Positions 2,013 through 17,514 of a stretch of 29,955 nt of DNA are shown here, piece by piece. Position 1 is the first letter of the stretch. Each line of letters begins with the position of its first letter. The notes below the pieces were generated by a model. It did not search any database and had not been told where the DNA came from. It saw only the letters and a list, made by a program, of their open reading frames with translations. Position numbers and translations under genes: made by a program. Source of the stretch: Candidatus Bathyarchaeota archaeon (lineage in GTDB: Archaea; Thermoproteota; Bathyarchaeia; RBG-16-48-13; JAGMEO01); NCBI GenBank assembly GCA_023128135.1, contig JAGMEO010000001.1, positions 1 to 29,955 on the forward strand, written 5' to 3'.

Positions 2013-2120
2013 TGGTGGGCCCGGCGGGATTTGAACCCGCGTTCTCTGGCTCCGAAGGCTTACACCAGTGTAGCTTATCTACATCTGTCAGTGCCTTGAT
2101 CCAAACTAGGCTACGAACCC
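2013..2120 (-). tRNA. tRNA-Arg(UCG) with one non-canonical 29-nt intron at 29/30; CCA encoded
   Basis: Reverse complement GGGTTCG-TA-GCCT..AAGGC-A-CTG|intron|GC-CTTCGGA-GCCAG-AGAAC-GCGGG-TTCAAAT-CCCGC-CGGGCCC-A-CCA. Cloverleaf is complete only after intron removal (79 nt). Confidence 0.93.
2060..2088 (-). other. tRNA intron at 29/30 (BHB)
   Basis: ACAGATGTAGATAAGCTACACTGGTGTAA. Central helix GCAC/GTGT, bulges TG|A and AA|G, inner hairpin CAG-A-TGTAG/CTACA-CTG. Confidence 0.9.
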
Positions 2121-3043: not shown

Positions 3044-3158
3044 TTCATCACCTAAAGATAATGTGTTTATGAGTAACTTCTATTAAAGAAATTCAGTGTT
3101 AATCGCTATCAACTTTTTAAATTATGAGATCTGTGTTTTTATCTCTAGTCGTGATTTT

Positions 3159-3692
3159 ATGTCCGAAGAAATAATTGAAGCAAGTTTCAAAAAAAGCGGA
3201 GTCATAATTCCATCTCAAAAAGACGCTGATCTTTTGTATAAAAGCGGCTATGGGATTTTACATAAACAAGATGAAGGATCAATTTTAGGATCATGCGAAA
3301 CACTTCACTTAGTTGCTGAGAAACGGCTTCATGTAATTGATAATGAGAACCGTAAGGAACTAAATTTCCCAACGCTGCTTGAAAAGTTCCGAAGTAAAGA
3401 TGCAGAGATATGGACTAGATACCTAATTTACAGGGATCTTAGAAGTAGAGGCTATGTTGTTAGAGACGGATTCAGCTTTGGGATAGATTTCCGTTTATAC
3501 GAACGAGGCAAATATGGGGAACAAGCTGCAAAGTATATTGTCTTTGGTATATGTGAAGGAATTCCGACACCTATCAAGAAGCTTAGTGAGATTCTTCGAT
3601 TCGTTCAAAGTACAAAAAAGAGTCTCATTCTTGCGGTTGTGGATAGGAGAGGTGAGATCGTGTATTATTCACTTTCTAAACTTACTTTTTAA
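3159..3692 (+). CDS. endA: tRNA splicing endonuclease subunit, probably the structural (beta) subunit
   Basis: YLIYRDLRSRGYVVRDGFSFGIDFRLYERG and LILAVVDRRGEIVYY match the EndA C-terminal domain. The catalytic His position reads EQAAKY instead of xHSxY/HAxY. ATG 3159 chosen as start. Confidence 0.88.
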   Translation: MSEEIIEASFKKSGVIIPSQKDADLLYKSGYGILHKQDEGSILGSCETLHLVAEKRLHVIDNENRKELNFPTLLEKFRSKDAEIWTRYLIYRDLRSRGYVVRDGFSFGIDFRLYERGKYGEQAAKYIVFGICEGIPTPIKKLSEILRFVQSTKKSLILAVVDRRGEIVYYSLSKLTF

Positions 3693-4572: not shown

Positions 4573-4671
4573 TGGCGGGCCCGCGGGGAATTGAACCCCG
4601 GATCTGCAGCTATCTTCCATGGGGGGTATCATTAGGAGGCTGCTGCCTTATCCAGACTAGGCCACGGGCCC
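4573..4671 (-). tRNA. tRNA-Arg(CCU) with 21-nt canonical intron (4612-4632); CCA encoded
   Basis: GGGCCCG-TG-GCCT..AGGC-A-GCAGC-CT-CCT-A|ATGATACCCCCCATGGAAGAT|A-GCTGC-AGATC-CGGGG-TTCAATT-CCCCG-CGGGCCC-G-CCA. Confidence 0.93.
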
Positions 4672-4781
4672 AAGGCTTCAAAAGTTTAGGGAATATAAAT
4701 TTATTGTCATTCTTTTCTCGTTGTTAGATAAGACAACGAATTTTGTTGTATCCGTGTGACCCAGGATGTTTGTTGGCGCCC

Positions 4782-4812
4782 TTCGGCAGGAGCGAATAGT
4801 TACTCACTCCTT
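4782..4812 (-). other. tRNA intron in the 3' strand of the acceptor stem (68/69), strict hBHBh'
   Basis: AAGGAGTGAGTAACTATTCGCTCCTGCCGAA. Central helix CGGC/GCCG, bulges CA|A and AA|G, 10-bp inner hairpin AGGAGTGAGT/ATTCGCTCCT, outer CC/GG. Confidence 0.9.
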
Positions 4813-4842
4813 TGGCCGGGATTTGAACCCGGGTCGAGCGGG

Positions 4843-4855
4843 ATCTGCGTTTTTT
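4843..4855 (-). other. Canonical 37/38 tRNA intron (BHL type, 13 nt)
   Basis: AAAAAACGCAGAT. CTGT/GCAG helix, bulges CG|A and AT|C. Confidence 0.88.
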
Positions 4856-5009
4856 CGACAGCCACTCATGTTAGACCTGACTGCACCACCAGGGCTATAT
4901 TTGATATGATGATTAGAAATTTGGAACTATATAGCTTATTTAAGCATTTACATACCTTTCCATCTCCCAAAAACATCAAAGAAAATAATTTTTGGTCCCG
5001 CGGGAGCGA

Positions 5010-5039
5010 GTTTCAGCTAAACATTAAATTGATTATGCT
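5010..5039 (-). other. T-loop tRNA intron at 59/60 (30 nt)
   Basis: AGCATAATCAATTTAATGTTTAGCTGAAAC. Helix TTCA/TGAA, bulges AA|A and AC|T, outer helix is the T-stem. Confidence 0.88.
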
Positions 5040-5061
5040 TTTGAACGCCCGACACTCCGGT

Positions 5062-5107
5062 GTCTGTTAGCTTGGTATGTTAAGTTTTGTCTATCTAAGG
5101 TAGACAT
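5062..5107 (-). other. Canonical 37/38 tRNA intron (46 nt, possibly a composite of two)
   Basis: CTGT/ACAG helix, bulges AG|A and AC|A. Confidence 0.85.
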
Positions 5108-5114
5108 CTACAGC

Positions 5115-5145
5115 GTCTCCGTCCTTTTCATTTGAAAAAGTGGCT
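5115..5145 (-). other. tRNA intron at 30/31 (31 nt)
   Basis: AGCCACTTTTTCAAATGAAAAGGACGGAGAC. Helix CTTC/GGAG, bulges CG|A and AC|G, inner hairpin CTTTTTC/GAAAAGG. Confidence 0.87.
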
Positions 5146-5201
5146 CGGAAGCTCTACCAAGCTGAGCTACCGCGGGATAAATCAAAGAAAATGAAAATTG
5201 G

Positions 5202-5339: not shown

Positions 5340-5416
5340 GGGCCCGTAGCTCAGCAAGGAAGAGCACCGGGCTTTTAACCCGGTGGTCCTGGGTTCAATT
5401 CCCAGCGGGCTCACCA
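5340..5416 (+). tRNA. tRNA-Lys(UUU), intron-less; CCA encoded
   Basis: GGGCCCG-TA-GCTC..GAGC-A-CCGGG-CT-TTT-AA-CCCGG-TGGTC-CTGGG-TTCAATT-CCCAG-CGGGCTC-A-CCA. Confidence 0.96.
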
Positions 5417-5695: not shown

Positions 5696-8600
5696 GTGTT
5701 GAATAATTTGCAATCATCAAAATTAGACCTTTGGATTTTAATGAAAAAATATATTGAAGAAAAAGGCTTGGTTAGGCAGCATCTTGATTCATATAATGAT
5801 TTTATAGATACGGGTTTACAGGAAATAGTGAGCGAGGTAGGGAAAATTCAGGTAGAAGCCCAAGATTATCCTTTTGAAGTTAAGCTTGGGAAGATTGAGG
5901 CCACTTGTCCACGAATTGTAGAGGTAGATGGTTCAGATCACACAATTTATCCGATGGAAACTCGGCTAAGAAATCTAACTTATTCTGCTCCTCTATACCT
6001 TGAAATGATACCTGTAAAAGACGGGTGTGAAGGGCTCTCAGAAACTGTTTACATCGGTAATTTTCCAGTTATGTTAAAGTCTAAACTATGTCCTCTTTCT
6101 AAGATGACTCCAGAGGAGCTAATTAAGGCAGGTGAGGATTCAAACGATCCTGGCGGGTACTTTATTGTTAATGGTTCAGAAAGAGTGACTGTTGCAATGG
6201 AGGACTTAGCCCCAAATAGAATATTGGTTGACATCGACGATAGTGGAACTAAGCCTGTTTACAGGGCAAAAGTCTTCTCAACGACGGTTGGCTTTAGAGC
6301 AAGAATTGAAATAAAAATGAAGCATAGTGGAGGTATCTATGTTTCTATACCGGGCGTTCCATCTGAGCTCCCAATAATTATATTGATGAGAGCTTTAAAC
6401 CTGGAGTCAGATAAAGATATAGTAACATTGATTTCAAGCGATGAAAAAATCCAGGACCAGCTTGAACCCTCTTTTGATGAAGTTCAAGGAATAAGTACAA
6501 CTCAGAATGCAATAGCGTATATTGGTAATAGAGTCGCCTATGGTCAAATTGAGGAGTATAGGATTAAAAGGGCTGAGAGCATTTTAAGTAGGAACTTTTT
6601 TCCTCACATAGGTCAAACAAACGAACACCATTTGGAGAAAGCAAGATTTCTAGGAGAAATGGTTTTAAGGGTTATTGAATTAAAACTGGGACGCAGAAAG
6701 GAAGATGATAGGGATCATTATGCAAATAAACGATTGAGATTAGCTGGGCCTCTTCTATCAGACCTCTTTAGGATAGCCTTTCGAAGTCTATGCAGAGACA
6801 TAAAATATCAATTAGACCGTATGAGTATCAGAAGAAAAGCCCTCTCAATTCCTACCGCAGTAAGACCTGGAATAGTAACAGATCGTATGAACCATGCTTT
6901 GGCAACAGGAAACTGGGGACGAGGAAGAGTTGGAATGACACAGCTCTTAGATCGTAAAAATTTTATATCAACCTTAAGTCACTTAAGACGTCTCCAATCT
7001 CCTCTTAGTAGAAGTCAACCAAACTTCGAAGCTAGAGATTTACATCCAACTCATTGGGGACGTCTTTGTCCCAATGAAACACCTGAAGGTTCAAACTGTG
7101 GTCTGGTAAAAAACCTAGCTCTTATGGCATCCATTTCTGTTGCTGCTGATACTGATAAGGTTATACGTTTCTTAAGTCATCTAGGTGTAGTATCTACAAC
7201 TAAACCTATTTCAGAGGATGAGGAAGTTTATGCAAAAATCTTTGTTGATGGCTCTCTAATCGGATACCATAATGATCCAGTTTCCTTAGTGAGAGCTTTT
7301 AGGAAGGCTCGTAGGCATGGAGAAATAGATCCAGAGGTTAACATTGTTTACTACTCTGAACACAAAAGAAAGGTCTCCCCTATAATTTTCGTGAATTGTA
7401 ATGTTGGAAGAATACGACGGCCATTAATAATAATAGAAAATGGCGAATCCAAACTCACACTCGAACAAATCACGAGACTAAAAAAAGGAGAAATCACTTT
7501 TGATGATCTTATATTAGAAGGTAGTATAGAATATCTAGACGCAGAGGAAGAAGAAAACGCATATGTGGCTTTAAACCATGAAAGCTTAACATCCAAGCAC
7601 ACCCATCTAGAAATTGCATCTTACACAATACTTGGCATATGTGCATCAACAATCCCATATGCTGAGCATAATCAGTCTCCTAGAAACTCCTATGAAGCAG
7701 CGATGGCTAAACAAGCTTTGGGTGTTTATTCAATTAACTACTTCAACAGAGCAGACTCGCGATCACACTTCCTTCATTATCCCCAAAAACCACTAGTAAC
7801 AACAAAACCAATGGAAGTCTTACACTACAACGAAAAACCATCTGGACAAAACTGTATAGTAGCTGTTCTATCCTGCAAAGGCTATAATATGGAAGACGCT
7901 ATCGTATTAAACAAATCTTCAATACAACGGGGTATGTTTAGATCCTTTTTCTATCGGGTCTATGTTGCAGAAGGGAGACAGTACCTCGGTGGATTAAAAG
8001 ATAAATTTGAAACTCCATCTTCTGACATAAGGGGCTTCAGAGGAGAACAATATTATAAACTACTTGAAGAAGACGGTGTTATTGGCGTAGAATCTCTTGT
8101 TGATGGGAGCGAGGTACTTATCGGCAGAACAAGTCCACCTCGCTTCTTAGAAGAATATAAGGAGTTTGAACTCAAAGGTCCTACAAGAAGAGACACCTCT
8201 ATTACTATGAGATCTGCCGAAGCAGGAACTGTTGATGAAGTATTTCTAATGGTTTCAGCTCAAGGCAATCGGCTGGTTAAGGTTAAGGCTCGGGATCAAA
8301 GAATCCCGGAGCTAGGAGATAAATTTGCTTCTCGACACGGACAGAAGGGAGTAATCGGCATGGTTATTCCTCATGTTGACATGCCTTTTACAGAAGATGG
8401 CATTGTTCCAGACATAATAATTAATCCTCACGCCTTCCCTTCTAGAATGACTGTGGGACAGTTTGTTGAGTCTATTTCAGGTAAAGTTGCAGCCTTAGAT
8501 GGTGAAGTCATGGATGGAACGCCTTTCTACAGTTTGACAGTGGATGAGATAAGGAAAAAACTCTTTAGTCTAGGCTTTCAGCACAGTGGCAGAGAAGTTA

Positions 8601-9052
8601 TGTATGATGGTTTGACCGGGAAAAAATACGAAGCAACCATCTTTATTGGTGTCGTATACTACCAGAAACTCCATCATATGGTAGCAGATAAAATACATGC
8701 AAGGGCGAGAGGACAAGTACAGATGCTTACCCGGCAACCCACTGAAGGAAGAGCTAGGGGCGGAGGTTTACGATTCGGGGAAATGGAAAGAGACTGTCTA
8801 ATAGGATATGGTGCATCTCTTCTTCTGAAAGATAGGCTTTTGGACGAGTCAGATAGAACAATCATATATGCTTGTGAGAAATGTGGTTTCATCGGATTCT
8901 ATGACTTTAAGAAAAGAAAGTATATTTGCAGAGTGTGTGGAGAGAACACTGTTATTTCCCCTATTGTTGTCTCCTACGCTTTTAAACTTCTATTACAAGA
9001 GTTAATGAGTCTGGCTATTGCACCAAGAATGAAGCTTGGAGGACGAGCGTAA
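5696..9052 (+). CDS. rpoB: DNA-directed RNA polymerase subunit B (Rpo2, unsplit)
   Basis: LVRQHLDSYN, DKFASRHGQKG, KLHHMVADKIHARARG, GGLRFGEMERD and a C-terminal Zn ribbon; 1118 aa, no intein. Confidence 0.97.
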   Translation: MLNNLQSSKLDLWILMKKYIEEKGLVRQHLDSYNDFIDTGLQEIVSEVGKIQVEAQDYPFEVKLGKIEATCPRIVEVDGSDHTIYPMETRLRNLTYSAPLYLEMIPVKDGCEGLSETVYIGNFPVMLKSKLCPLSKMTPEELIKAGEDSNDPGGYFIVNGSERVTVAMEDLAPNRILVDIDDSGTKPVYRAKVFSTTVGFRARIEIKMKHSGGIYVSIPGVPSELPIIILMRALNLESDKDIVTLISSDEKIQDQLEPSFDEVQGISTTQNAIAYIGNRVAYGQIEEYRIKRAESILSRNFFPHIGQTNEHHLEKARFLGEMVLRVIELKLGRRKEDDRDHYANKRLRLAGPLLSDLFRIAFRSLCRDIKYQLDRMSIRRKALSIPTAVRPGIVTDRMNHALATGNWGRGRVGMTQLLDRKNFISTLSHLRRLQSPLSRSQPNFEARDLHPTHWGRLCPNETPEGSNCGLVKNLALMASISVAADTDKVIRFLSHLGVVSTTKPISEDEEVYAKIFVDGSLIGYHNDPVSLVRAFRKARRHGEIDPEVNIVYYSEHKRKVSPIIFVNCNVGRIRRPLIIIENGESKLTLEQITRLKKGEITFDDLILEGSIEYLDAEEEENAYVALNHESLTSKHTHLEIASYTILGICASTIPYAEHNQSPRNSYEAAMAKQALGVYSINYFNRADSRSHFLHYPQKPLVTTKPMEVLHYNEKPSGQNCIVAVLSCKGYNMEDAIVLNKSSIQRGMFRSFFYRVYVAEGRQYLGGLKDKFETPSSDIRGFRGEQYYKLLEEDGVIGVESLVDGSEVLIGRTSPPRFLEEYKEFELKGPTRRDTSITMRSAEAGTVDEVFLMVSAQGNRLVKVKARDQRIPELGDKFASRHGQKGVIGMVIPHVDMPFTEDGIVPDIIINPHAFPSRMTVGQFVESISGKVAALDGEVMDGTPFYSLTVDEIRKKLFSLGFQHSGREVMYDGLTGKKYEATIFIGVVYYQKLHHMVADKIHARARGQVQMLTRQPTEGRARGGGLRFGEMERDCLIGYGASLLLKDRLLDESDRTIIYACEKCGFIGFYDFKKRKYICRVCGENTVISPIVVSYAFKLLLQELMSLAIAPRMKLGGRA

Positions 9053-17412: not shown

Positions 17413-17514
17413 TGGCGCCGGGAAAGGGATTTGAACCCCTGAGATCCCAAAGGATCACAGACTCCCCTGATTTTTTCTCAAGGCCTGCGCTTTTATCCAC
17501 TCAGCCATCCCGGC
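17413..17514 (-). tRNA. tRNA-Ser(UGA) with 13-nt canonical intron (17464-17476); CCA encoded
   Basis: GCCGGGA..CAGGC-CT-TGA-G|AAAAAATCAGGGG|A-GTCTG, long variable arm GATCC/GGATC, G73. BHL helix CTTG/CAGG. Confidence 0.93.

Follow-up and report, generated by a model that had tools for sequence, protein, structure and literature searches.

The window, the whole stretch of 29,955 nucleotides analysed here, stems from a cold-seep metagenome and belongs to a fragmented MAG of 620 kb in 121 contigs that is 76% complete. Its minus strand carries, at 4774-4895, a tRNA-Asp(GUC) gene that is divided into three exons by two introns and encodes its own CCA. Exon 1 (4856-4895, minus strand) supplies tRNA positions 1-37 and is followed at the canonical site 37/38 by a 13-nt intron (4843-4855, minus strand) with a relaxed BHB motif that lacks an inner helix. 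Exon 2 (4813-4842, minus strand) covers positions 38-68 and ends in ...CCCGGCCA at 4813. Between A68 and G69 lies a second intron of 31 nt (4782-4812, minus strand), a BHB intron on the evidence of both its geometry and its covariation. The last exon, GGGCGCCA (4774-4781, minus strand), provides positions 69-72, G73 and the encoded CCA; it is 8 nt long, and the 68/69 intron sits eight bases from the 3' end of the gene.

A preliminary description of this locus had placed a 31-nt insert between A68 and G69, with coordinates that are exact on the minus strand, and had omitted the canonical 13-nt intron at 4843-4855. When both introns are removed in silico, ARAGORN reports a clean tRNA-Asp(GUC) cloverleaf with a 7-bp acceptor stem, a G10-U25 pair, G73 and CCA, which bears out the earlier expectation that excision restores a perfect acceptor stem; the unspliced form has a broken one. 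Cutting in the bulges of the motif thus gives, in silico, a perfect tRNA-Asp(GUC), and the spliced 3' end is identical to that of uninterrupted orthologues.

How does the insert present itself to the splicing machinery? It follows the strict 3-4-3 geometry of archaeal BHB motifs, with a 4-bp central helix between two bulges of 3 nt each, one on either strand. In the central helix the exon contributes C63-C66 (4815-4818, minus strand), which in the mature tRNA also belongs to the 3' strand of the T stem, and the intron contributes GCCG (4784-4787, minus strand). The 5' bulge consists of C67 and A68|A and the 3' bulge of A A|G69. Directly after the first bulge begins the inner hairpin h' of 10 bp with the loop AACU (within 4788-4811, minus strand), in which relatives show compensatory changes. 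The outer helix h, C61C62 with G70G71, is invariant and has 2 bp proper, which a trailer helix discussed below may lengthen. Every element of the hBHBh' structure named in the preliminary description is present. Because A68 and the last base of the intron are both A, the junction could formally be read as 67/68; some relatives have introns that end in U or G, and these resolve the ambiguity.

The central helix takes up four bases that would otherwise be paired in the T stem and in the top of the acceptor stem, and the motif and the cloverleaf are therefore mutually exclusive. With C63-C66 paired to the intron GCCG, the T arm must be unfolded and the precursor must refold, a consequence that had been proposed from the borrowed T-stem strand and that follows from the pairing itself; the trailer complementarity described below strengthens it. 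The unconstrained MFE fold of the precursor is not the BHB conformer.

Is this arrangement peculiar to one genome? When the DNA of 40 relatives was searched, the complete interrupted 3' half turned up within the genus, within the family and in further families of the order. Many class-level relatives have an uninterrupted ...CCCGGCCAGGGCGCCA and no canonical intron either. Of 61 genomes sampled from the class, 32 have the exact 3' end without interruption; of the 10 sampled from the window's order, none has it. One single-contig genome from another family of the order (G014) has an uninterrupted tRNA-Asp end without the 68/69 intron; the distribution within the order is therefore patchy. A pattern scan over one genome per GTDB species, in which the T loop and CCA had to be followed after 18-45 nt by GGGCGCCA, gave 30 loci. 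Their labels are Bathyarchaeia, Hadesarchaea/Hadarchaeales, Candidatus Terraquivivens (Caldarchaeales) and Nitrososphaerales. One of them, in a Bathyarchaeota MAG (L058), is the same sequence as that of a same-genus relative (G001), an identity by which the window can be assigned to Bathyarchaeia. The search for a split 3' end in related MAGs, suggested by the preliminary description, brought up the same intron in 27 distinct versions, spread over Bathyarchaeia, Hadarchaeia, Caldarchaeales and Nitrososphaerales. A covariance model built from the intron alignment detects the module in at least 8 of the 23 genomes from the order, and in the Hadarchaeum class in at least 17 of the 61 that were sampled.

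One further match would have extended the range to Asgard archaea. This single 'Hodarchaeaceae' locus (L076, JASEJC010000005.1) is probably mis-binned: its tRNA-Asp body, its intron (identical to those of L061 and L066) and its rpoB neighbourhood, with the large ORF downstream of the gene, are all of Hadarchaeota type. Either the contig or the label of the MAG appears to be wrongly assigned, and we reject the Asgard occurrence.

The 27 distinct introns, 18-32 nt long, all keep the CA|N and AN|G bulges and an inner helix that starts directly after the bulge. The intron strand of the central helix reads GCCG in 24 of them, GUCG in two and ACCG in one, which leaves four standard pairs in 26 and three, with an A-C mismatch, in the remaining one. 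Across the alignment the proposed pairs are paired in 97% of cases vs 30-55% after a shift of the partners by 1-3 columns. Covariation is not to be expected in the central and outer helices, each of which has an invariant exon as one strand. In the inner helix, all seven pairs show changes on both sides (7/7 compensatory), a level of covariation reached by none of 500 shuffles. Geometry, covariation and the uninterrupted orthologues of relatives agree on a BHB intron at 68/69, as first described.

Some of these relatives carry further insertions in the same gene. The tRNA-Asp of G007 (L118, G007:C11:133112-133290) has three introns, one in the anticodon (~34/35), one in the T arm (~53/54) and one at 68/69. 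In G008 (L027) an intron inside the anticodon replaces the one at 37/38, and the tRNA-Asp genes of G013, G004 and G012 have inserts in the D loop.

The enzymatic requirements of such an intron can be read from gene content. The assembly encodes two PF01974 (EndA) paralogues. The first, an ORF of 187 aa on another contig (C67), keeps the Tyr/His/Lys context and resembles the catalytic alpha subunits of the heterotetramers of Aeropyrum, Sulfolobus and Pyrobaculum, with E values down to the 2.6e-43 of the crenarchaeal subunit 3p1z_B. The second lies in the window itself, at 3096-3692 on the plus strand and 1.1 kb from the tRNA-Asp gene; it has 198 aa with N- and C-terminal endonuclease domains. 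The position of the catalytic His is not conserved, as expected of a structural subunit, and we therefore read this ORF as probably the beta subunit of EndA. Both subunit types of the alpha2beta2-type enzyme that had been put forward for cleavage are thus encoded, and by gene content the host has an endonuclease of the type that is reported to accept non-canonical and relaxed motifs (PMC4090602, PMC5829648). An RtcB-type ligase (PF01139) was not found in the 76%-complete assembly.

A further element lies just outside the gene. The 3' trailer contains CCUGGGUC (4758-4765, minus strand), which is complementary to G45-G53, that is, to the variable loop and the 5' strand of the T stem; its target is GACCCGGG (4828-4835, minus strand). 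In most lineages the trailer reads UUGAACC(C/U)GGGU(C), which is complementary to the variable loop, the 5' strand of the T stem and the T loop. The window genome and its congener have a shorter complement of 8 bp with one G-U pair, the weakest of all, and their full-body duplex does not stand out from shuffles (z of -1.4). Pairing the first 30 trailer bases with positions ~43-60, with the register optimised for each sequence, gives a median duplex energy of -19.6 kcal/mol in 30 intron-bearing genes vs -6.35 kcal/mol in 28 intron-less genes of the same class, a difference whose p value (Mann-Whitney, ~3e-10) overstates the case because related genomes were treated as independent. A position in the variable loop covaries with its trailer partner (A-U in 12, C-G in 14 and G-C in two), and U49 variants pair with an A or a G in the trailer. 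In a count meant to reveal selection on the trailer at the RNA level, G-U outnumbers A-C by 37 to 21, a modest excess that is biased by the scoring. By eye, no such complement is seen in the trailer of G014, which has no 68/69 intron. In the Hadarchaeum subgroup, the leader together with the 5' acceptor strand is about as good a partner for the trailer as the T arm is.

Folding calculations relate this complement to the motif. The BHB-constrained fold lies 3.8 kcal/mol above the MFE with the trailer and 7.9 without it, and once the BHB pairs are enforced the precursor fold forms the trailer helix unprompted. It seems that the RNA just 3' of the gene helps fold the precursor for cutting; pairing with the trailer would free C61-C66 for the splicing motif.

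Motif, conservation and enzyme genes are plain from the DNA; from them we infer the following route. In the primary transcript the 3' end would not be folded as a cloverleaf. The GCCG of the intron would pair with C63-C66 and G70G71 with C62C61, and the intron hairpin would serve as inner helix, giving a 3-4-3 BHB that would be cut after A68 and before G69. The 5' T-stem strand, left without a partner, would be taken up together with the variable loop by the complement in the trailer, CCUGGGUC in the window genome. This trailer helix may lengthen the weak 2-bp outer helix and tether the 8-nt last exon for ligation. The 3' domain would then resemble a rod composed of the trailer helix, a small internal loop, the 2-bp outer helix, the BHB and the intron hairpin. 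A heterotetrameric (alpha2beta2-type) EndA would cut both bulges and an RtcB-type ligase would join the exons, while the 13-nt canonical intron would be removed independently. The T arm and the 7-bp acceptor stem would form only after splicing, and RNase P and the trimming of the 3' end would therefore have to come later.

The most far-reaching form of this proposal is that the 68/69 intron and the anti-T-arm trailer are one co-inherited RNA module, in which the trailer serves as a built-in guide by opening the T arm, completing the motif and splinting the last exon of 8 nt. Such a module could have persisted since before the divergence of Bathyarchaeia, Nitrososphaeria and Hadarchaeia, or could have moved between them as a replacement tRNA 3' end. 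We put this forward tentatively and stop somewhat short of believing it. If true, splicing necessarily precedes both end-processing steps.

The complementarity might also have a different origin. The intron could be real and spliced and the trailer complement no more than a DNA-level footprint of the arrival of an intron-bearing 3' end, for instance part of the tRNA copied in inverted orientation during recombination or homing, with no role in splicing. As the T arm is nearly palindromic, partial inverted copies of the tRNA pair by construction. The weak complement in the window's genus fits this origin as well, the ratio of G-U to A-C is not decisive, and at one Bathyarchaeia locus (L052) a LAGLIDADG_3 ORF lies directly downstream of the gene. 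However, no endonuclease gene stands beside the tRNA in nine of the ten loci tested or in the window. The complement is kept across lineages with differing tRNA bodies and tracks their differences in the variable loop and at U49, whereas a continuing tRNA copy is not what most lineages show: their complement stops near the variable loop. The trailer also halves the energetic cost of the BHB conformer. On balance we consider a footprint without function unlikely, but the most serious competitor to a trailer that assists splicing.

The genes flanking the tRNA-Asp encode a phosphoribosyltransferase, the EndA beta-like subunit, UbiA, other tRNAs and RNA polymerase. The earlier suggestion that the intron interrupts a tRNA 3' end used by an integrase as attB finds no backing in these neighbours: no integrase-like ORF appeared among the flanking genes scanned, and the assembly has no second copy of the 3' end. 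This reading is set aside, as is that of a homing-endonuclease cassette, since the window locus has no LAGLIDADG-type ORF and L052 is the only one of 10 related loci that does. There, the LAGLIDADG_3 ORF (L052:1138-2097, minus strand) starts directly downstream of the intron-bearing tRNA-Asp and overlaps its trailer.

The EndA beta-like gene is surrounded by a cluster of mostly intron-bearing tRNA genes (window 2013-2120, 4573-4671, 5340-5416 and 17413-17514), which comprises Arg(UCG), Arg(CCU) with a 21-23-nt intron, Ser(UGA) and an uninterrupted Lys(UUU). A candidate tRNA-Tyr with three introns (30/31, 37/38 and 59/60) lies at window 4993-5176 and is reported neither by ARAGORN nor by the Rfam tRNA model. 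Among the other inspected tRNAs of the genome several have introns in the D arm, the anticodon or the variable region, and none has one in the 3' acceptor strand. Two tRNA genes of the window's assembly (G000 C59:4352-4446 and C35:5706-5790) are matched by the Rfam model only over positions ~8-64; each has an insert, either close to the 8/9 junction or within the D loop, and their 3' acceptor strands are uninterrupted. Next to the window cluster lies an ORF of 1118 aa (window 5696-9052), which we take to be RNA polymerase subunit B. In Hadarchaeota (L055, L061, L066, L072, L076, L077, L080) the tRNA-Asp stands just upstream of a small ORF and an ORF of ~1100 aa that is homologous to it, and the linkage of tRNA-Asp to this large ORF may be old.

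Can a gene that looks so damaged to common software be functional? In its intron mode ARAGORN accepts the canonical intron, truncates the gene at 4808 and leaves a mismatched acceptor stem. The Rfam tRNA model reports the tRNA-Asp gene neither at the gathering score nor in a whole-genome search. The preliminary description had anticipated exactly this, namely that standard finders would probably overlook the gene or cut it short. A pseudogene in decay, or a tRNA whose hairpin insertion is never removed, would likewise escape these finders, and among the RNA runs in which the locus was sought no metatranscriptome contains it. Against such decay stands the status of the gene as the sole tRNA-Asp found: a BLAST search of the 76%-complete assembly with the spliced sequence returned this locus and T-loop matches to other tRNAs, six matches to a GTC-loop pattern have no tRNA context, and the intact tRNA-Asp(GUC) elsewhere that would have undermined the intron did not turn up. 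Moreover, the exons show no deviation from the functional consensus of relatives, the insert recurs in different phyla with compensatory changes and an exact BHB geometry, and the 10 sampled genomes of the order hold no uninterrupted copy. We judge a pseudogene or a permanently retained hairpin to be very improbable.

The DNA evidence for the insert is direct. It is present without gaps in one contig of the probable source run and in one from a different marine-sediment study, both spanning 4576-5170. These two contigs from independent studies differ from the window at just two sites, both outside the intron, and a third run holds a related variant that also has the insert. In the contigs spanning the locus no read-through joint without the insert was seen. 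That the insert might be an artefact of assembly or binning, as a fragmented MAG of this kind could invite, deserves practically no credence in view of these gap-free contigs, the interrupted variant of the third run and the same architecture in dozens of independent MAGs. Taken together, we are confident that the genome's only detectable tRNA-Asp(GUC) carries a genuine archaeal BHB intron at 68/69, for which a trailer-aided splicing route can be proposed.

Non-canonical BHB introns, several introns within one gene and alpha2beta2 splicing enzymes are all well documented in archaea. What sets this intron apart is its place in the tRNA. Reviews list intron positions from 20/21 to 59/60, with an acceptor-stem intron at 3/4 as the extreme case (PMC4090602). 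The preliminary description placed non-canonical introns mostly in the D, anticodon, variable and T regions, with none known to it in the 3' acceptor strand; the reviewed positions do stop at 59/60 apart from 3/4. A 68/69 intron has no record in PMC4090602, PMC4033280, PMC3218864, PMC4390854, PMC3293823, PMC8450103 and PMC11291895 or in a 2026 Asgard preprint. tRNAscan-SE 2.0 extends its hits by 60 nt of flank, which is meant for introns near the ends (PMC8450103), and end-near introns may thus already sit in GtRNAdb. Within the sources consulted, the 68/69 intron is a new position for a known type of intron.

The comparison with known systems makes this more concrete. Like the non-canonical BHB introns of Thermoproteales, other Crenarchaeota, Thaumarchaeota and Nanoarchaeota, the intron is short and of the protein-spliced kind, with a 4-bp helix and 3-nt bulges, shares its gene with a canonical intron and occurs in a host with an alpha2beta2-type EndA (PMC4090602, PMC5829648). 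Unlike them, it interrupts the 3' strand of the acceptor stem and leaves a last exon of 8 nt, its central helix is built from the 3' T-stem strand so that the T arm must unfold, and Bathyarchaeia, Hadarchaeia and Nitrososphaeria share it at a single site in a single isoacceptor. A second comparison is with the split and permuted tRNA genes of Nanoarchaeum equitans, Caldivirga maquilingensis and Thermofilum pendens, in which leader and trailer pair to build the BHB (PMC4090602, PMC3218864). For the tRNA-Asp precursor, too, it appears that RNA beyond the mature tRNA helps to assemble the motif and to hold the exons together. In contrast to those genes, the tRNA-Asp gene is contiguous, and its trailer pairs with the internal tRNA body and not with another flank.

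For the annotation of these archaea the finding has a practical side: common tools miss or truncate the only tRNA-Asp gene of such genomes, and MAGs of Bathyarchaeia and Hadarchaeia may therefore appear to be without tRNA-Asp. For tRNA biology it would extend the reach of EndA-dependent splicing to eight bases from the 3' end and to a recognition motif in competition with the T arm. Conservation of the site is unusually strong. The dependence on the trailer is a testable proposal, under which RNA beyond the mature tRNA may license splicing and determine in what order the precursor matures, splicing being followed by RNase P and 3' trimming. A single site in a single tRNA that is common to distant archaeal lineages also makes a useful case for weighing ancient against mobile introns.
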